This document shows, in pieces, positions 555 through 41,294 of a stretch of DNA of 64,000 bases. A model generated the notes under the pieces. That model was given only the letters and a program-made list of their open reading frames with translations. It ran no database searches and was not told where the DNA came from. The stretch is taken from positions 20,996 to 84,995 of the forward strand of contig CAWJBB010000053.1 of assembly GCA_963840855.1 (NCBI GenBank), read 5' to 3'. Made by a program: the position numbers and the translations under genes. Position 1 is the stretch's first letter. Every line of letters begins with the position of its first letter. The stretch is from an uncultured delta proteobacterium (lineage in GTDB: Bacteria > Desulfobacterota > Binatia > UBA9968).

Positions 555-1730
555 ATGGCGAATTTTATCGATAAGGAGTTGGATAGTCTTAAGCAAGCCG
601 GCCTCTATCGAACCCTGCGCCGTGTGGACGGAGACCAGGGGCCGACCTTGCTTTTGGACGGCCGGGAAGTCGTTAACTTCTCATCGAACAATTATCTCGG
701 CCTCGCCAACCATCCGGCGCTGCGCGAAGCCGCCAAGGCCGCCATCGACCGTTACGGTTGCGGCTCCGGCGCATCGCGCCTGATCTCGGGAAACATGGCG
801 CTTCACGAAGAGTTGGAAGCGAAAATCGCCGAGTTCAAGGGAACCGAAGCGGCGTTGGTTTTCAACTCCGGCTTTCAGGCAAATACCGGAGTCATCCCGG
901 CGCTGGTCGGTCCCGACGACGTAGTTTTCAGCGACGCGCTGAATCACGCCAGCATCATCGACGGTTGTCGGCTGGCGCGGGCCAAGATCGTCGTTTACGA
1001 GCACTGCAATATGGATCAGCTGCAACGAGGTCTGCAAGAAGCGCCGAGGGATGGCCGCAAGCTGATCGTCACAGAATCGTTGTTCAGCATGGACGGCGAC
1101 GAAGCGCCGCTCGCAGAAATTGTCGAACTCGCGGAACGCTACGGCGCCGTAGTAATGATCGATGAGGCCCATGCCACCGGCGTGTACGAACCGAACGGCG
1201 CGGGTTTGATCGCCAAGCTCGACCTGGGCGGGCGCGTGTTGGTGCAGATGGGTACTCTGGGCAAAGCGTTGGGCGGCTTTGGCGCCTATATTGCGGGAAG
1301 CAGGGCGCTGAGAGAGTTGTTGATCAATCGCTGCCGCAGTTTCATTTTCACGACCTCGCTGCCGCCGGCGGTGATGGCGATGGCCATCGCCGCCATCGAG
1401 CTGGTTCGAAAGGAGCCGGAACGACGCGCGGCGCTGCGGCGAAATTGCCAAACTTTGCGAAGCGGCCTCCAGGCGCTTGGTTACAAGGTCGGTGGCAGCC
1501 AGAGCCAGATCCTGCCGCTCATCGTCGGCGACGCCGACGCGTGCATGAAATTCTCCGAGTATTTATTATCCCGCGGCGTGTTTGCCCAGGGGATTCGCCC
1601 GCCCACGGTGCCGCCGGCAACCTCGCGCCTGCGAATTACCGTAATGGCAACCCACCCACCGGATCACCTGCGCCAGGCGCTGGCGGTTTTTGAAGAAGCG
1701 CGTGATCTGCATCGGGACGCTCGTGAATAA
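555..1730 (+). CDS. bioF: 8-amino-7-oxononanoate synthase
   Basis: NFSSNNYLGL, SDALNHASIIDG, DEAH, GTLGKALG PLP motifs; next to bioA/bioD. Confidence 0.95.
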   Translation: MANFIDKELDSLKQAGLYRTLRRVDGDQGPTLLLDGREVVNFSSNNYLGLANHPALREAAKAAIDRYGCGSGASRLISGNMALHEELEAKIAEFKGTEAALVFNSGFQANTGVIPALVGPDDVVFSDALNHASIIDGCRLARAKIVVYEHCNMDQLQRGLQEAPRDGRKLIVTESLFSMDGDEAPLAEIVELAERYGAVVMIDEAHATGVYEPNGAGLIAKLDLGGRVLVQMGTLGKALGGFGAYIAGSRALRELLINRCRSFIFTTSLPPAVMAMAIAAIELVRKEPERRAALRRNCQTLRSGLQALGYKVGGSQSQILPLIVGDADACMKFSEYLLSRGVFAQGIRPPTVPPATSRLRITVMATHPPDHLRQALAVFEEARDLHRDARE

Positions 1731-1740
1731 ATTAAGACGC

Positions 1741-1822
1741 CTCATCCGTCATTCCCGCGCATGCGGGAATCTAGGCCACAGAAATGGTTCTGGATGCCCG
1801 CTTTCGCGGGCATGACGATGAG
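1741..1822. repeat. REP/MITE-like double palindrome (ATTCCC-N8-GGGAAT type)
   Basis: GTC-ATTCCC-gcgcatgc-GGGAAT at 1748-1770 and inverted ATGCCC-gctttcgc-GGGCAT-GAC at 1794-1816. Confidence 0.75.
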
Positions 1823-1870
1823 CAGTCATCGAATGTTTTTGCGGGCTCCTGGACAGGATATTAGAGATTT

Positions 1871-1905
1871 GACGATTGAGAATCGAGGATAGAAGATCGA
1901 CGGCC
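1871..1905. repeat. heptamer tandem array, GA(G/A)GAT-type word, single arm
   Basis: gacgatt gagaatc gaggata gaagatc; same word as 8064-8121. Confidence 0.7.
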
Positions 1906-1917
1906 CGAAGTAACACG

Positions 1918-3270
1918 ATGGATTACGAAGCTCTCAAGCGACTGGACCACAAGTATCTCTGGCACCCGTTTACGCAGATGCAGGAATGGGTGGCCGAGGA
2001 GCCCTGCATCATCAGCGAAGGCGACGGGCATTATCTGATCGATGTTCACGGCCGAAAATATTTGGACGGCGTCTCGTCCCTCTGGTGCAATGTCCACGGC
2101 CATCGCAAGAAAGAAATCGACGACGCGGTTAAAGCACAGCTCGACCGCATCGCCCATTCGACCTTGCTCGGCTTGAGCCATGTGCCGGGCATTCAATTGG
2201 CCGAGAAGCTGATCGCGATCGCGCCCACGGGACTCAAGCGGGTTTTTTACTCCGACAACGGCGCCACGGCCGTCGAGATCGCGCTCAAAATGGCGGTGCA
2301 ATATTGCCAGCTCAAGGGGACGAAGCAGCGGACGGGGATAGCGACTCTGGCGCAGTCCTACCACGGTGACACCGTGGGCTCCATGAGTATGGGCTACTCG
2401 GAAACCTTTCACCGGTTCCACAAGAGCCTGCTGTTCCCGGTGCTGCGCATCACGCCGCCGCACCTGTTTCGCTATGGTCAGGGCATGAGCGAGAGCGCCG
2501 CGCTCGGTGCGGCGATGAACGAAGCGGAAGAAAAACTTGGGCAAAACAAAGACAGTCTGGCCGCGCTGGTCATGGAACCGCTCATGCAAGGCGCCGCGGG
2601 CATGTGGTCGCAGCCCGTCGAGTACGTCAAGGCAATGGCGGAACTATGCCGGCGCAGCGGAATCCTTTTCGTCCTCGATGAGGTCGCCACCGGCTTCGGC
2701 CGCACCGGCAAGATGTTCGCGGCTGAACACGCCGGCGTGACGCCGGATATTCTCTGCCTTGCCAAGGGCATCACCGGCGGCTATCTGCCGCTGGCTGCGA
2801 CAGTTACGACGGAGGAGGTCTATGCGGCATTTCTCGGCGACTACGACGAGTTCAAAACTTTCTTTCATGGCCACACCTACACCGGCAATCCGCTCGGTTG
2901 CGCCGCGGCGCTGGCCAGCCTCGAACTGTTCGAACGGGAAAACATCATAGAAAAAATGCAGCCAAGGATCGCGTGCTTGCACAGACGGCTCGCCGGCGAG
3001 TTCTTGCGGTTGCCCCATGTAAGCGACGTGCGCCAATGGGGCTACATGATCGGCATTGAATTGGTCGAAGACAAGAAAAGCCTGAAGAATTACGCGACGG
3101 AGCGAAGGATCGGCCACAAGGTGATCGTCGCAGCGCGCAATCATGGGGTGATGATCCGCCCGCTAGGCGACGTGATCATACTGATGCCGCCTTTAACCAT
3201 CACCGATGACGAGCTCACGACGCTCTTGAACGTGGTTTATGACTGCATTCGCAGTGTTACGGAGGGTTAA
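1918..3270 (+). CDS. bioA: adenosylmethionine-8-amino-7-oxononanoate aminotransferase
   Basis: WHPFTQM, SSLWCNVHGH, DEVATGFGRTG, AKGITGGYLP, HGHTYTGNP; ATG at 1918 preferred because the upstream extension is repeat-derived. Confidence 0.95.
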   Translation: MDYEALKRLDHKYLWHPFTQMQEWVAEEPCIISEGDGHYLIDVHGRKYLDGVSSLWCNVHGHRKKEIDDAVKAQLDRIAHSTLLGLSHVPGIQLAEKLIAIAPTGLKRVFYSDNGATAVEIALKMAVQYCQLKGTKQRTGIATLAQSYHGDTVGSMSMGYSETFHRFHKSLLFPVLRITPPHLFRYGQGMSESAALGAAMNEAEEKLGQNKDSLAALVMEPLMQGAAGMWSQPVEYVKAMAELCRRSGILFVLDEVATGFGRTGKMFAAEHAGVTPDILCLAKGITGGYLPLAATVTTEEVYAAFLGDYDEFKTFFHGHTYTGNPLGCAAALASLELFERENIIEKMQPRIACLHRRLAGEFLRLPHVSDVRQWGYMIGIELVEDKKSLKNYATERRIGHKVIVAARNHGVMIRPLGDVIILMPPLTITDDELTTLLNVVYDCIRSVTEG

Positions 3271-3296
3271 CCGATCTTTTGGGGCATGCGGTAGCT

Positions 3297-3364
3297 TCAT
3301 TCTGAGGCCGCAGGCCGAAGAATCTCAATGCAGATCCTTCGTCGCTCTCGCTCCTCAGGATGAC
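3297..3364. repeat. REP-like inverted repeat element
   Basis: TCATTCTGAGG...GAAGAATCT / AGATCCTTC...CCTCAGGATGA between bioA and bioD. Confidence 0.7.
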
Positions 3365-3399
3365 AAACCTCTGAAGGTTCGGAGGACTGTGGCTTCTCT

Positions 3400-4104
3400 A
3401 TGGGTCAAGGGATTTTCATCACCGGCACGGACACCGGCGTCGGCAAGACCTACGTGACATGCGGTCTCGCCGCGCTCCTCCGCGAGTCCGGTTATCGCGT
3501 CGGCGTCATGAAGCCGGCTGAAACCGGTTGCGACGGCGGCGATGGCAAACTGGTGCCGCAAGACGCGCTGGCGCTGAAGGCCGCGGCCGGGTGCGAATTT
3601 TCTCTGGAAAAAATCTGTCCCTATCAATTCCGCGAGCCGCTGGCGCCGAGCGTCGCCGCTGAGCGTGAAGGACGGCGCATCGACGTCGAACGGCTGATGG
3701 ATATCTACCGCGAGATCAGCGCCGCCCACGATATTACCCTTGTCGAAGGCGCGGGCGGTTTGATGGTGCCGCTCGTGCCGAGCTACACCTACGCCGATTT
3801 CGCAAGTGTCTTGAAACTGCTAGTAATCGTCGTAGCGGCGAACAAGCTCGGTGCCATCAATCATTTGCTGTTGACGCTGGAGCATGCGAGCTGCAAGGAT
3901 CTCGGAGTCCTCGGGTATGTTCTGAATCAGCTGGAGCCCGCGACGTCGCTGGCGGCGGAGACCAATCGCGAGGCACTCTTCTCGCTCACGGCTGTGCCAT
4001 GTTTGGGCGAGCTGTCCTACGCTGGAGTCGCCGCGGGAGCAACGGCTGCGGTCGGTGCAGAATTGGATAGCAAGTTTCTCGCCGCGTTATTGCCGAGTCG
4101 GTAG
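3400..4104 (+). CDS. bioD: dethiobiotin synthase
   Basis: ITGTDTGVGKT P-loop, KPAETG, VEGAGG, LGAINH. Confidence 0.95.
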   Translation: MGQGIFITGTDTGVGKTYVTCGLAALLRESGYRVGVMKPAETGCDGGDGKLVPQDALALKAAAGCEFSLEKICPYQFREPLAPSVAAEREGRRIDVERLMDIYREISAAHDITLVEGAGGLMVPLVPSYTYADFASVLKLLVIVVAANKLGAINHLLLTLEHASCKDLGVLGYVLNQLEPATSLAAETNREALFSLTAVPCLGELSYAGVAAGATAAVGAELDSKFLAALLPSR

Positions 4105-4142
4105 AAGGCTATGCGGACGGGAAAGCCAATAGGAGATGTTTT

Positions 4143-4910
4143 GTGAGAAAACTCTTGATTCGACTGCGACAGCAGTTGGGCGCGACAAAGATTGCGCGCA
4201 GAGTATATCGCCGGCTGCCGTCCAACAAGCGCTGCAAGGAATGTCTCGTGCCTTTCCTCGGATTGTTCTCCATTCCTTTCAGCCTGGTGCACATCAGGCC
4301 CTCGCGCAAGAATCCCAACCTGTGCACCCTTTGATATGAGCTGGCTCCTCCGGGCGGGGAGCTCTGCCATATCTCGGTGCTCTTCGTTGACGTGCGCGGC
4401 TTTACGTCGCTGGCGGAGCGGCTGCCGCCCGCGGAAGTGGCGCAGCGTCTCAATCGCTTCTACGCTCTCGCCTCCAAGGCTATTTTTCACTATGACGGCA
4501 CGCTGGACAAGCTCGTCGGCGATCAGGTCATGGCTTTTTTCGGCGCACCGCTCTACGCCGAGGATCACCCGGCCAGAGCGGTGCAAGTGGCGGTAAGAAT
4601 TCTCGAAGGGGTCAAGGATCTTGCTCAGGGAGGCGGCCTGAAGGTCGGCGCCGGCATCGCCACGGGGGAGGCCTTTGTCGGCAACGTGGGGGAAGGTGCG
4701 GTGACGGACTATACGGTGCTCGGAGATACAGTCAACGTGGCGGCGCGCCTGCAGGGCGCCGCCGCGGCCGGACAGATACTCGTCACCGAAGAAACCTATG
4801 CGCAGGTCGCGGCCAAGTTTCCCAATCTTCCGAGTCGCGATATCGAGCTGAAGGGGAAAAGCGAACCGGTCCGCGTCCGAGCGATTGTCGTGAATGGCAT
4901 CCGAGATTGA
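4143..4910 (+). CDS. class III adenylate cyclase with N-terminal CxxC...CxxU module; in-frame TGA at 4332-4334 (candidate selenocysteine)
   Basis: ORFs 4143-4334 and 4377-4910 are in one frame separated only by TGA; AGGAG RBS at 4131; FVDVRGFT, DKLVGD, GDTVNVAARL cyclase motifs. Confidence 0.8.
4333..4373 (+). promoter_or_regulatory. candidate bacterial SECIS hairpin
   Basis: GATATG(4333-38)/CATATC(4368-73) lower stem; GCTCC(4344-48)/GGAGC(4358-62) upper stem; bulged U4349; GGGC apical loop starting 17 nt after UGA (folded by eye). Confidence 0.65.
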
Positions 4911-4973
4911 CCGAGCGCCCATGGGTCGCGCCATCTCACCAGAAAACCAATAGAAAATTGCGAATGCTTTCCG

Positions 4974-5357
4974 TCAAGACTTCCGTTTTTCCTCGTTAAT
5001 GAAGTTAAGAATTTTTTGGCGGAGATCTTCGTCGGCACGCGCAATCTCGAAGATCTGGCTGTAACTTTCTTCAGTGAGTCCTTCCTTCGTCAGAGCTCCT
5101 TGCATCTTTGATACCGCTTCATTTTGAATTTCTTTGCCCTCTTCTGGATTCTTAGCTTCTTTCAGCCGAGGCTCATACACTTGCCGAATCTTCTCAACCT
5201 CCACGTAAACTTTTGCGAAAGACCTGAGTTGGCTCTCACTCACGCTCAGTTGCGGCTTGAGCGATTCTTGCGCCTGAACTTGTTTTGCGCATGGAAGGAT
5301 GAGAAATCCGGCGACAAAAATCGCTGCGACGGTCTTCAGACTCGCTATTTGCATCAC
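4974..5357 (-). CDS. DUF4168-like exported protein
   Basis: signal peptide; SESQLRSFAKVYVEVEKIRQ and GLTEESYSQI helical pattern. Confidence 0.75.
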   Translation of the reverse strand: MMQIASLKTVAAIFVAGFLILPCAKQVQAQESLKPQLSVSESQLRSFAKVYVEVEKIRQVYEPRLKEAKNPEEGKEIQNEAVSKMQGALTKEGLTEESYSQIFEIARADEDLRQKILNFINEEKRKS

Positions 5358-5391
5358 CTACCTCCTTCTGGGAAAAGATTTCTTTTTTTGG

Positions 5392-5408
5392 AGCAATACA
5401 CATGCCAA
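5392..5408 (-). promoter_or_regulatory. sigma-54 -24/-12 promoter
   Basis: minus strand TTGGCATGTGTATTGCT, GG-N10-GC, 35 nt before the start. Confidence 0.75.
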
Positions 5409-5573
5409 TCGTCTCCAGCATGATTATCCAACGTTATTAGATAGATCTTTGTGTCGCGGAGGATGTCGTTGAATGAGTTTCCCTGCAGCTCAGACCAGAA
5501 ATCTCTAACAAGATGGGAGTTTGCTCAATTGCGCAAATCCGCAGCAGATTGCATATTGGGCGGGGTCGTTTCC

Positions 5574-6836
5574 TCAACGACGGCGCATTTCGGTTCCGAA
5601 ACTTCTTAAGTTCGGCAGCATTATCCAGCAGACCAAGGTAAGCAGTCCGCCGACGGCGCAGCCGACGAGCAGTGCGCCGGGCGCTCCTATGAGCGCGGCG
5701 ATGAAACCCACTTCGGTTGCGCCCACCGCGCTCGCTCCTTGAGAGAACATGTTGAAAACGGCGAAAGCTCGGCCGCGAACTTGATCTGGAGTTAGAAGAT
5801 GAAAGGTGGTCTGGCGCATAACCGCTTGCAGTGAATTCACGAGTCCCAGGACGCCGAGTAGAAAGACCGACAGCCAGAAGTTCGTCGATAGTGCGAAAAT
5901 GCCCACGGCCACCGCGTAAGTAAGAAACGACCAGAGTACCACAAGTCCTTTGTGCTCGACATCGCCGATCAGAAGCAGAAGGAAGGTTCCGATAATCCCG
6001 CCGACCGCCGGAGCCGAGGACAATACACCGAAGCCCGCAGGTCCCACGGACAGAATATCTTTGGCAAAGATCGGCAACAGCGGCCGGTAACAGCCCGCGC
6101 CGGCGACTATGAAGTCGAGCACGACCATCGCTAAGATAATGGGCTCTGAACCAAGAAACCGCAGGCCGCCTAAAAAACTGCCAACGGAAAATGCTTCCTT
6201 TTTGTGATCCGGTGCTGCCGATGTTTGCATGAGAATAATGCCGATTGCTGCGGGGAGATAGAATATTGCATTGAATAGATACGCGCTGCCGATATCCATC
6301 CATTCAAGACTGACGCCGGCTACCATAGGGCCGATGAAATGGGACGCTTGACCGACGCTGGAATTTAACGACACCGCATTGGTAAGATGGGAACGGGGTA
6401 CGAGCTTCGAGATCAGCGCCATCCGAGCCGGATTGAGGACGATATTCAGCGCCGAAGTCAGAGCGGTGCCGACGAGGATATGCCAAACGCGAACGGCGCC
6501 GGTCAGGGTCAAGGTCCCCAGCGCGACGGCAACCAGCAAGTTTCCCGCCACAGTGATGAGGAGCAGCTTCTTGCGGTCGACAAAGTCCGCCAATGTCCCG
6601 CCGAACAGTCCCAGGGCAAATAAAGGAATTCCTTGTGCTAAACCCGTCAGCCCAAGCTGAAAGGCGGAGCCTGATAATTCATAAACCTGATAGAGATTCT
6701 GGATCTGGCGCATGTGCTGTGCCGTCGTGGCAGAAAGCGCAACGAAAAAAAGCAGGCGGTAATCGCGGTACGCGAGAGATGCCCACGGCCGGAGCGCAAG
6801 GGCCGGTCCGCGGCTTGGTTGTGGATCAGCGGCCAT
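5574..6836 (-). CDS. MFS transporter (MFS_3/EntS-like)
   Basis: about 12 hydrophobic segments, GGTLADFVDRKK motif A, RGRAF. Confidence 0.9.
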   Translation of the reverse strand: MAADPQPSRGPALALRPWASLAYRDYRLLFFVALSATTAQHMRQIQNLYQVYELSGSAFQLGLTGLAQGIPLFALGLFGGTLADFVDRKKLLLITVAGNLLVAVALGTLTLTGAVRVWHILVGTALTSALNIVLNPARMALISKLVPRSHLTNAVSLNSSVGQASHFIGPMVAGVSLEWMDIGSAYLFNAIFYLPAAIGIILMQTSAAPDHKKEAFSVGSFLGGLRFLGSEPIILAMVVLDFIVAGAGCYRPLLPIFAKDILSVGPAGFGVLSSAPAVGGIIGTFLLLLIGDVEHKGLVVLWSFLTYAVAVGIFALSTNFWLSVFLLGVLGLVNSLQAVMRQTTFHLLTPDQVRGRAFAVFNMFSQGASAVGATEVGFIAALIGAPGALLVGCAVGGLLTLVCWIMLPNLRSFGTEMRRR

Positions 6837-6849
6837 TACGTGGCGGGTG

Positions 6850-8016
6850 CTACCTGCGATAATTCCTCATGACCTCGTCGTGAAGAAGTTTCAGCGGGAT
6901 TTTCTTGGCGGCGGCGATCTTTCTCAGATCGTCGTATTCGGGCGCAGCGCGTTTTCTGCCGCCGGGAAGCTCGGCGACTTTGACCCGGACGTTGCCGTAG
7001 CGCGTCTTTACGTTTTCCAGCGAACGGTTGAGGATCACTCGGCCCACCGGGTAGAAGCGAACGCCGATGCTGGTGGTTTCATCCAGGAGGATGCGCGCTA
7101 GCTCGTCGCGGTCTTTAGGTTCGGCAATCACGCTGAGCAGTGTGGCCGGCCGGTTCTTCTTCATCTGCACCGGCGCGAGAAACACGTCGCGGGCGCCGGC
7201 GGCGAAGAGGCGGTCCATGACATAATCGTGGAACTGGGGATTCATGTCATCGATGTTGGTCTCGATGACGAGCATGGATTCTTCTTTCCATCCGGCTTCG
7301 CCGCCGGAACCTAGAACGACGCGAAAGAGATTGGGGCGATGAGCAAACTCTTTTTGCCCAGTGCCGTAACCGACGCTCTCGACGGTCATGGGCGAATGCG
7401 CGCCGAAGCTTTTGCCCAACGCGCTGACAATGGCCGCGCCGGTGGGCGTTACGGTTTCATCGTCGACATCGATTCCTTTGACGGGAAGTCCCTTGAGCAA
7501 TTCGAGCGTCGCTGGCCCTGGAACCGGCAGCGGACCATGCCGTGTCCGGGTAAGGCCGCGGCCCAACGGAATGGGCGAAAAATGAAATGCCTCGATCCTT
7601 AACTCATGCGCGGCCACGGCGGCGCCGACAATATCGACGATCGAATCGGTGGCGCCAACTTCGTGAAAGTGAACCTTGTCCACGGGAATACCGTGGACCT
7701 TGGCTTCGGCTTCGGCGAGGCGAGCAAATATCTTGAGCGCAGTGTCTTTGACATCGGGATGAAGCTTGCTGCGCCGGATCAGCCGTCGAATCTGGTTCCA
7801 CGACCGGGCCGGATCGTTTTGCCCGCAGACCACGTGAAATTGGACAGCGCGGATGCCGTGGACGGTTTTCTTCGAAGTCTTCAGGCCAAACCGCAGAACG
7901 GGAATTTTCTTAAGCTCGCTTTTCAACTTGGCAAGCGATAAACCGGCATCGAGAAGCGCCGCGACAAACATGTCGCCGCTGACGCCGCCGATCAGGTCTC
8001 CGTAGGCGATTTTCAC
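6850..8016 (-). CDS. larC: nickel-pincer cofactor biosynthesis protein LarC
   Basis: GVSGDM, VHFHEVGATDSIVD, HGPLPVPGPAT, TPTGAA, ETNIDD, MKKNRP, ETTSIGVR, PEYDD. Confidence 0.93.
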   Translation of the reverse strand: MKIAYGDLIGGVSGDMFVAALLDAGLSLAKLKSELKKIPVLRFGLKTSKKTVHGIRAVQFHVVCGQNDPARSWNQIRRLIRRSKLHPDVKDTALKIFARLAEAEAKVHGIPVDKVHFHEVGATDSIVDIVGAAVAAHELRIEAFHFSPIPLGRGLTRTRHGPLPVPGPATLELLKGLPVKGIDVDDETVTPTGAAIVSALGKSFGAHSPMTVESVGYGTGQKEFAHRPNLFRVVLGSGGEAGWKEESMLVIETNIDDMNPQFHDYVMDRLFAAGARDVFLAPVQMKKNRPATLLSVIAEPKDRDELARILLDETTSIGVRFYPVGRVILNRSLENVKTRYGNVRVKVAELPGGRKRAAPEYDDLRKIAAAKKIPLKLLHDEVMRNYRR

Positions 8017-39869: not shown

Positions 39870-41294
39870 ATGGCCATTAGAACCGGGGCAAATTACATCA
39901 AGGCGCTGCGCGACGGGCGGGAGGTGTGGCATGCCGGGCGGCGCATCGACGATGTCACTGCCCATGCCGGATTTTCCGGCACGATCAAGACCCTCGCCGA
40001 TCTGTATGACAAGCAGCATGCGCCGGAGTGCCGCGATATCATGACGCTGGACTATGAAGGCGAGCGCATCTCCTACAGCTATCTGCCGCCGCAAAACGCC
40101 GAGCAGCTGGCGCTCAAGCGGCGCAACATCGAGTTCTGGTCGCAGGCGACATTTGGCCAGATGGGCCGTTTCCCGGAATTCGTCGCGGAACTGGTCGTGG
40201 GTTTGCGCGACTGGGCGCACATCATTGAGCAGACCAATAAGCAATGGGCGGAAAACGCCAGGGCCTACCATCGCTACGCGAGCCGCAATGACCTATGTCT
40301 TACCCACGCCCTTACCGATCAATACTACGACCGCACCAAACCCGTCAGCGGGCAGGAAGATCCGGATTTGATCTTGCATATCGTCGGCGAGACCAAAGAG
40401 GGCCCTGTCATCAGGGGCTTGCGCACGCTGGCCACTCTGGCGCCGATTTCCGACGAAGTGTTGGTTTACCCCAACCGGCCGCGGGAGCCGGGCGAAGCGG
40501 ACTATGCGGTTGCGTTCGCGATTCCGATGAACACAAAAGGCTTGAAGATCGTGTGCCGCGATCTCTACGCAGAAAACGCCGATCCGGAGCGGCAACCGTT
40601 GACCGCGCGCTTCGACGAAGTCGATGCCGCGCTGATTTTTGACGACGTGGTGGTGCCGTGGGAACGGATCTTCGTCTACAAAGATCCAAAGCTGCTGGCG
40701 GGGATCATGTACATTCACACCTGGGGGCAGTACTCGACGATGCTCCGCTTGATCACCAAGCTGGAAGGGTTCCTTGGCGTCGCCCAGCTGTTGACGCAGA
40801 TGGCGAAGCGCAACACCAGCGCTTCCTCGCAAATACTTTTATCGAGCCTGATGCAAGACATAGAAATTCTCCGCTGCTGCATTCAAGCCGCAGAATCCAA
40901 GGGCTACCGGGCCGCCGGGGGCACATGGGCGCCGCTGTTGAGCGCGGCCTATCGCGTGCATAGCATCGAAGCGTCCGATCGCGCCGAAAGAACGATGGAA
41001 GGCTTGTTGACGAGCACTCTTATGCTCAGCGGCGGCGCCTCGGATCTAAGCAATACAGAGATCGGGCCGTTTATCGACCGCTATTTTCGCGGCGGCGCGC
41101 CGAGCACCAAGGAGCACTTGCGTCTGATGGCCGTCGCCGCCGATATGGTCATGACTGCTTTTGGTAAGCGCAGCCAATTGTACGAGCGGCTGCAAAGCGG
41201 CGAAGTCGACCGGATGCGCCAGCGGCTTTACGGCCAGTATCTGGATCCGGCGCCGCAGGAAAGAATGCTGCGGTTTGTCAAGGAGATGGGCTGA
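39870..41294 (+). CDS. 4-hydroxyphenylacetate 3-hydroxylase family flavoprotein
   Basis: RTGANYIKALRDGREVW, GQMGR, ARFDEVDAALIFDDVVVPWERIF; ATG 39870 with GGAGG RBS. Confidence 0.88.
   Translation: MAIRTGANYIKALRDGREVWHAGRRIDDVTAHAGFSGTIKTLADLYDKQHAPECRDIMTLDYEGERISYSYLPPQNAEQLALKRRNIEFWSQATFGQMGRFPEFVAELVVGLRDWAHIIEQTNKQWAENARAYHRYASRNDLCLTHALTDQYYDRTKPVSGQEDPDLILHIVGETKEGPVIRGLRTLATLAPISDEVLVYPNRPREPGEADYAVAFAIPMNTKGLKIVCRDLYAENADPERQPLTARFDEVDAALIFDDVVVPWERIFVYKDPKLLAGIMYIHTWGQYSTMLRLITKLEGFLGVAQLLTQMAKRNTSASSQILLSSLMQDIEILRCCIQAAESKGYRAAGGTWAPLLSAAYRVHSIEASDRAERTMEGLLTSTLMLSGGASDLSNTEIGPFIDRYFRGGAPSTKEHLRLMAVAADMVMTAFGKRSQLYERLQSGEVDRMRQRLYGQYLDPAPQERMLRFVKEMG

Follow-up and report, generated by a model that had tools for sequence, protein, structure and literature searches.

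We have studied a gene in a stretch of 64,000 nucleotides of DNA from an uncultured delta proteobacterium of the Binatia (GenBank assembly GCA_963840855.1, contig CAWJBB010000053.1). This whole stretch is called the window below, and positions are counted from its first letter. On the forward strand a 63-codon open reading frame (ORF) runs from a GTG at 4143 to ...SRKNPNLCTL-TGA, with the TGA at 4332-4334. Past this codon, number 64, the same frame stays open until a second TGA at 4908-4910, making 255 codons in total. Cysteine is encoded at codons 31, 34 and 61, and together with the TGA at codon 64 this gives the arrangement C31xxC34...C61xxU64, where U is selenocysteine (Sec). We conclude that this is very probably a single gene, encoding a soluble class III adenylate cyclase in which the UGA at codon 64 is decoded as Sec within an N-terminal module of three cysteines and one Sec (Cys3Sec). 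The features of the locus are the following.

4131..4135, forward strand: Shine-Dalgarno-like AGGAG, 7 nt ahead of the GTG; orthologues share this start (MRKLLIR...)
4143..4910, forward strand: whole coding sequence of the predicted Sec-containing class III adenylate cyclase, 255 codons, the UGA at codon 64 being the predicted Sec
4200..4361, forward strand: N-terminal Cys3Sec module, residues 20-73 (RCKEC ... SRKNPNLCTLU)
4233..4244, forward strand: first ligand pair C31-K-E-C34, from translation and alignment
4323..4334, forward strand: second ligand pair C61-T-L-U64, in which the UGA is 4332-4334
4345..4361, forward strand: conserved core of a candidate bacterial selenocysteine insertion sequence (bSECIS), a 6-bp stem CUCCUC/GGGGAG with the apical loop CGGGC, from RNAalifold
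4333..4373, forward strand: extended hairpin of the window only, with lower stem GAUAUG/CAUAUC and unpaired A8 and U11, from folding
4368..4865, forward strand: class III cyclase catalytic domain PF00211, residues 76-241, from Pfam

The original prediction, made by a model from the letters alone, had described this layout (the AGGAG, the GTG, the 63-codon ORF, the 255-codon read-through and a TGA in place of a fourth cysteine), and direct reading of the sequence bears it out. It had also held that an ORF starting at 4377 is unlikely to be a complete gene. This is upheld by the AlphaFold model of the read-through protein, in which the 4377 start corresponds to residue 79 and falls within the first predicted strand, E73-85. 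The codon itself was checked in public sequence data, and contigs from other runs read TGA. Logan contig X1, from a DNA run, covers 4100-4559 and spans codon 64 with no other letter at 4332-4334. Contig X16, from a metatranscriptome library in which DNA carry-over is possible, covers 4187-4449 and is unchanged at the same three positions; it is the only RNA-library contig to span codon 64, since X15 (starting at 4330) and X17 (ending at 4316) do not.

Is the TGA retained in related genes? A six-frame search of 41 related genomes recovered an orthologue in eight, the window's own included, with 70-100% identity and one TGA each. The TGA stands at the same codon in all eight, within the motif RKNPNLCTL*YE[LF]APPGGE. 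One of the eight, locus L024 of genome G015, is unpublished, and its contig is seemingly also L047, which is among the 42 hairpin sequences analyzed below; no conclusion depends on G015. A scan of species-representative genomes gave 32 full-length loci (L045-L076), and at the site 31 of these carry TGA, one is frameshifted and none has Cys. Their record titles place them in Candidatus Binatia, Dehalococcoidia, Chloroflexi or Chloroflexota, and under a few other labels. Within this set L072 loses its frame right at the RKNP motif, the match of L076 has a length that is not a multiple of three, and L069 is without the first CxxC in frame. Of 301 sampled Dehalococcoidia genomes, three contain a gene related to P0008, a Cys form, at E ≤ 1e-60. 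All three carry TGA; no Cys-form DNA was found in that sample, and it was taken from a scan of metagenomes (below).

Cysteine takes the place of the UGA in more distant genes. It is aligned to codon 64 in 11/11 database homologues that span the site (NPxxCTxCYE; full length, 56-64% identity). The pairing of Cys with TGA at codon 64 that had been anticipated is therefore what the alignments contain, with TGA in close relatives and Cys in more distant full-length homologues. Among 80 loci from a scan of metagenomes the site is TGC or TGT in 47, TGA in 30 and Cys within a variant motif in one, the remaining two being more distant. The scan was seeded with Cys forms and its pattern required Cys at the site, so that these proportions of Sec to Cys are not frequencies; TGA stands at 30 loci in spite of this bias.

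The annotation of these genes in public databases is split at the UGA. When the read-through protein is used as the query, 109 of the 120 best matches are proteins of 169-219 amino acids (aa) with 65-94% identity that cover 62-73% of the query, and those that were aligned begin just past the UGA (MAPPGGE..., VLFVDV...). Conversely, when 1.84 billion representatives were searched with the first 70 residues, at least 17 of the 150 matches listed were proteins of 46-92 aa that end at query position 62-63. They supply the N-terminal part that the truncated proteins lack.

The TGA-bearing genes fall into three clades. That of the window has the motif ...CTL*YELAPPGGE. The second consists of Binatia paralogues at about 40% identity (L032, L034, L035 and L040, from genomes G008, G024, G007 and G005, respectively) with the motif NPNLCNR*ELHWETGRLSE; its first ligand pair is C-L-A-D rather than CxxC. 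The window's genome yields only the window's own cyclase gene in a protein search at E ≤ 1e-40. The third clade comes from metagenomes (L156, L158, L166-L168, L170, L171, L173, L174, L176-L178, L180, L182 and L186), has the motif RKNPEMCNY*DDVLPTGGAE, and nests among Cys-form clades on the tree. Complete read-through ORFs of 215-300 codons are present at 82 related loci, and the tree was confined to rows of this kind (82 rows); 4 of the 16 paralogue loci L029-L044 passed the filters. On the maximum-likelihood tree, which has 86 rows (47 Sec and 39 Cys), five changes of the Sec/Cys label are needed, at least four of which are forced by well-supported branches. Two Cys forms sit inside the window's Sec clade next to a Sec form that is about 80% identical. 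L128 (TGT) and L129 (TGA) are a Sec/Cys pair with about 80% identity. We infer several switches between Sec and Cys in the history of the family. The invariant residues upstream of the UGA (R, P, G, S, T) use 3-6 synonymous codons each and, judged from the aligned sequences, the DNA on either side of the UGA evolves in the manner of coding sequence.

Bacterial Sec insertion is directed by a hairpin, and the original prediction had placed one directly 3′ of the UGA, with a bulged U. In the window, the 48 nt from the UGA fold with an energy of -22.2 kcal/mol (z = -2.41), and 4 of 200 shuffled sequences fold as well. Counted from the U of the UGA, the apical loop is C20-G21-G22-G23-C24; it begins at a distance of 16 nt from the UGA, and the 17th nt past that codon is the first G of the loop. 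In an alignment of 42 distinct Sec sequences from the window's clade, RNAalifold keeps only a 6-bp stem (14-19/25-30) with the loop C-G-G-G-Y, in which 249 of 252 cells are paired and the consensus energy is -9.9 kcal/mol. The hairpin is thus real in its upper 6-bp stem and loop, but the lower stem GAUAUG/CAUAUC and the bulged U (unpaired U11) are not conserved. The complement CRTATC occurs in 9 of the 42 relatives, and we rejected both the long lower stem and the bulged U as parts of the element. At pair 15-29 the 42 sequences have U-A in 39, G-U in two (both sides changed) and A-A in one; the two sequences with GCG for Ala+4 are the two with GUG at +9, and the pair is preserved.

The element can be compared with the published bSECIS consensus. 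This has a loop of 3-9 nt with G in the first two loop positions, an upper stem of 4-16 bp, a distance of 16-37 nt from the UGA and a minimum free energy (MFE) of -7.5 kcal/mol or lower, as given in section 5 of the 2026 catalogue of prokaryotic selenoproteins (PMC13188914). The cyclase hairpin agrees with it, having a 5-nt loop CGGGY, 6 bp and a spacing of 16 nt that is the lower limit. Like the Escherichia coli fdhF-type element and the consensus model, it is a stem-loop directly 3′ of the UGA and within the coding region, with a 5-nt loop in which the second base is G and is followed by G, an upper stem in the range of 6-8 bp, and an energy well below -7.5 kcal/mol. It differs in its minimal spacing and in the first and last bases of the loop (C...C/U/A), which are unpaired, unlike the commonest pattern. 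By analogy the hairpin is a putative SelB-binding element.

Codon usage in this region provides a further view of the hairpin. In the Sec clade (n = 42) Ala+4 is GCT in 35 of 37, Pro+5 is CCC or CCT in 41 of 41, Pro+6 is CCG in 40 of 41, Gly+8 is GGG in 42 of 42 and Glu+9 is GAG in 39 of 39. In the Cys clade (n = 36) another residue (Leu, Met or Phe) is found at +4, Pro+5 is CCG in 25, CCC in nine and CCT in two, residue +6 is variable, Gly+8 is GGC in 16, GGA in 15, GGT in four and GGG in one, and residue +9 is different, mostly Ala. Other invariant Pro and Gly codons in the same genes have a codon entropy of 0.7-1.9 bits, and GGG is rare among them. This synonymous constraint is the evidence that discriminates, and as read from the codons it is RNA-level selection on the hairpin. 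The hairpin is therefore kept among TGA-bearing homologues, as had been proposed, with a conserved core and frozen synonymous sites. The other two Sec clades encode different residues here and have their own hairpins of 8-9 bp, with GGC, GGA or GGU loops 18 nt after the UGA; that of the third clade is a 9-bp hairpin with a bulged C.

We looked for the machinery of Sec insertion in the window's genome (G000; 94% complete, in 93 contigs) and in other carriers of the gene. A selA-selB-selD cluster lies on contig C1 of G000, with selA scoring 616 bits and selD 383 bits, the latter with one in-frame TGA. The formate dehydrogenase gene fdhA (C40:300397-303685) has a TGA at the canonical ...ARI*HS site, and matches as three separate pieces. 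Its hairpin, GUCCCC-GGUCU-GGGGAC, lies 18 nt after the UGA and resembles that of the cyclase. Among other carrier genomes, selB is above cut-off in five of five and tRNA-Sec is above the Rfam cut-off in four of the five tested, one of them from the same genus. As selA is present in 39 of 41 relatives, finding it together with the TGA form says little within this order.

What kind of protein would the read-through produce? The four ligand positions C31, C34, C61 and C/U64 are invariant in 63/63 aligned sequences. The module that contains them has no Pfam match at E ≤ 0.1 and no NCBIfam match at E ≤ 1, and no named Atlas cluster was found for the module of the Cys homologue P0011. Its predicted local distance difference test score (pLDDT) is 93-95 within the full-length model and 64.7 when it is modelled alone, a gap that suggests packing of the module against the catalytic domain. 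DSSP analysis of the full model has C31 and C34 in a knuckle between two bridge residues, and C61 and U64 at the start of a helix (62-66), which we take to resemble a treble-clef zinc site. Part of the module is also matched in seven stretches of P0132 (1513 aa), which has the Pfam match BCMA-Tall_bind and may be a Cys-rich repeat protein.

The identity of the catalytic domain is clear. PF00211 matches residues 76-241 with 82.8 bits against a cut-off of 21.9, and the AlphaFold model of the read-through protein has a mean pLDDT of 91.8 and a predicted template modelling score (pTM) of 0.89. Among 82 sequences, residues D83, D127, T191, N198 and R202 never vary, and K123 is conserved in at least 90%. 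Their spacing presumably fits that of CyaC, with D83/D127 as the metal-binding Asp pair, a Lys/Thr pair for adenine and an Asn/Arg pair for the transition state. This sequence pattern suggests an ATP-using, possibly bicarbonate-responsive enzyme of class IIIb. The closest structure found by Foldseek is CyaC of S. platensis (1wc1; E 1.6e-18, TM-score 0.88 by target, 34% identity over 192 columns), and the closest sequence found by phmmer is CyaB of P. aeruginosa (3r5g; E 1.2e-27). Fold and sequence of the catalytic domain are shared with these class IIIb cyclases, but CyaC and CyaB are without the N-terminal CxxC...CxxC/U module and without Sec, and the structural matches cover only residues of about 70-249. 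The same module and cyclase domain occur in P0177 (498 aa), fused to a cyclic nucleotide-binding domain and a Crp-type helix-turn-helix; its domain order suggests that sensing and transcription are linked in one self-contained path.

Several results weigh against a Sec-containing cyclase in this organism. One concerns the tRNA. A genome-wide Rfam search of G000 did not find tRNA-Sec (best score 43 bits, cut-off 47), ARAGORN lists 39 tRNAs in the genome and none for Sec, and Rfam at an E-value threshold around the sel operon gave chance microRNA matches only and no tRNA-Sec. In G000, selB lies in two reading frames (208 + 193 bits); at C1:38583-40521 overlapping frames of 187 and then 475 codons have their junction near 39961-40007. 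The split has arisen either through an indel in the assembly or through a real frameshift, and the latter would bear on Sec decoding in this organism; the frame breaks in both selB and fdhA may be assembly indels. The search for the sel genes that the original prediction had suggested has thus found selA, selB and selD, but not selC, in an assembly that is 94% complete. At the hairpin, the stem is nearly invariant and the covariation is thin, with one double-changed pair in two sequences. Stability of the hairpin was tried as a discriminator of Sec from Cys forms and rejected, since the 48 nt that follow the codon have a mean MFE of -15.8 kcal/mol in 56 Sec rows and -15.9 kcal/mol in 44 Cys rows (p = 0.91), at least two of the latter being chance regular-expression matches. 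The two means are alike because the codons of P-x-G-G pair on their own, and the potential to form a hairpin is partly a by-product of these codons. Finally, the role of the module as a sensor rests on the logic of its motif and on a predicted model, that of the module alone having low confidence.

Three other explanations of the UGA can be set against Sec, and even taken together they are improbable, each being contradicted by several results. The UGA might be a genuine stop separating two genes, one for a 63-residue Cys-rich peptide and the other for a cyclase starting at a CTG near 4341 or at the GTG at 4377, with products that might assemble. Gene callers yield exactly these two products in public databases, and UGA is also the true terminator of the cyclase gene at 4908-4910. 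Yet the stop would then fall exactly on an alignment column where all uninterrupted homologues have Cys, and the stretch of 14 codons from the UGA to 4377 shows protein-level conservation, and stays in frame, in every relative. Moreover, there is no conserved in-frame start downstream, the 4377 start cuts strand E73-85, and the frozen synonymous sites make a SECIS-like hairpin and not a ribosome-binding site. We therefore regard two separate genes as highly unlikely. A single protein without selenium would result if the UGA were read by a standard tRNA, either near-cognate Cys or Trp, and the missing tRNA-Sec and divided selB of G000 speak in its favor. This is set against the presence of selA, selB and selD in the carriers, most of which have tRNA-Sec, and against the TGA that G000 itself keeps in fdhA and selD, where it stands at the canonical Sec site of each. 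In its position and its loop the hairpin is like a SelB-binding element, and the assembly of G000 is incomplete, with only 39 tRNAs listed. We consider reading by a standard tRNA to be very unlikely.

A pseudogene or a sequencing error, in which TGC or TGT has become a nonsense TGA, would require only one base change, and apparent frame breaks do occur in the selB and fdhA genes of G000. However, the TGA recurs in dozens of independent assemblies, with protein identities of 55-95% and record titles that name two phyla, there is protein-level conservation on both flanks, and contigs from other runs carry the same codon. We give this explanation hardly any credence. We hold the Sec reading with high confidence, as the pattern of codons and alignments points to it, and the gene is most likely a representative of a genuine, widespread and apparently undescribed selenoprotein family.

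How might such a protein be made and act? Codon 64 would be decoded by the system of SelA, SelB, SelD and tRNA-Sec, SelB delivering Sec-tRNA. Decoding would be directed by the stem-loop CUCCYC-CGGGY-GGGGAG, starting 13 nt after the UGA within the A-P-P-G-G-E codons. The Sec is predicted to be the fourth ligand of the invariant CxxC...CxxC/U module ahead of the catalytic domain. This module may bind Zn or Fe, or may form and cycle a selenenylsulfide between C61 and U64, and its oxidation or metal state would tune synthesis of cyclic AMP (cAMP) by the cyclase dimer. For this sensor mechanism, which leans on the predicted model, we see an even chance. A more far-reaching proposal is that the Cys3Sec site is a highly reactive and reversible redox or metal switch, that this is the first selenoprotein in second-messenger signalling, and that cAMP reports both redox and selenium status; this we put forward only tentatively, and we think it rather doubtful. 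If it is true, the UGA and its SECIS make synthesis of the full-length cyclase depend on the supply of selenium.

The protein would be the first selenium-containing nucleotide cyclase. The term cyclase was not found in the main text and tables of the 2022 and 2026 catalogues of prokaryotic selenoproteins (PMC9312934, PMC13188914), and no cyclase appears in the available text of deep-Sep (PMC12013277), BSepDB (PMC13326102) or Haft and Gwadz (2022). No relevant paper came from full-text searches in which selenoprotein or selenocysteine was combined with terms for cyclases or with Binatia, and none of the NCBIfam models searched names a cyclase as a selenoprotein. The earlier assertion that no Sec nucleotide cyclase family has been described thus agrees with the searched portions of the selenoprotein catalogues. 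The family may nevertheless be present in BSepDB, or in the supplements, unnamed or under another name, as its 111 families are not all given in the main text. One of the ten richest selenoproteomes in the main text of BSepDB (PMC13326102) is that of Dehalococcoidia bacterium UBA1141, and the genome of UBA1141 holds L066, a TGA form of the cyclase gene. It is because this selenoprotein-rich genome carries L066 that the cyclase may sit unnamed in that database.

As far as the available catalogue text goes, the cyclase resembles catalogued selenoproteins with a small Cys4 module in having a predicted Sec for Cys in a CxxC-type pair, a UGA with an immediate hairpin, and Cys homologues. It differs from them in belonging to another family, and in that here the module is fused to an enzyme that forms a second messenger.

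A number of consequences would follow. With Sec in the regulatory module of an enzyme that forms cAMP, the reach of selenium biology would come to include signal transduction. To our knowledge, nearly every bacterial selenoprotein is a redox enzyme or has been implicated in handling metals or metalloids. The carriers of the gene are uncultured soil lineages (Binatia and Dehalococcoidia), about whose signalling, so far as we are aware, essentially nothing is known. A systematic annotation error would be corrected, since the same 109 of 120 best matches are called as truncated cyclases and orphan peptides are their other half. Lastly, the natural Sec/Cys pairs, extending to those with about 80% identity, allow one to ask what Sec adds to a sensor of the Cys4 type.

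The genes around the cyclase in the window have no evident functional tie to it (555-4104 forward strand, 4974-8016 reverse strand). Upstream on the forward strand lie a class I/II aminotransferase (555-1730), a class III aminotransferase (1876-3270) and an AAA_26 protein (3400-4104), which resemble bioF, bioA and bioD. Downstream on the reverse strand, at 4974-8016, are genes for a DUF4168 protein, a major facilitator superfamily transporter and a nickel-insertion (LarC-type) protein. An antisense ORF of 305 codons (4017-4934, reverse strand) spans the entire cyclase gene and may be a by-product of G+C-rich coding sequence.

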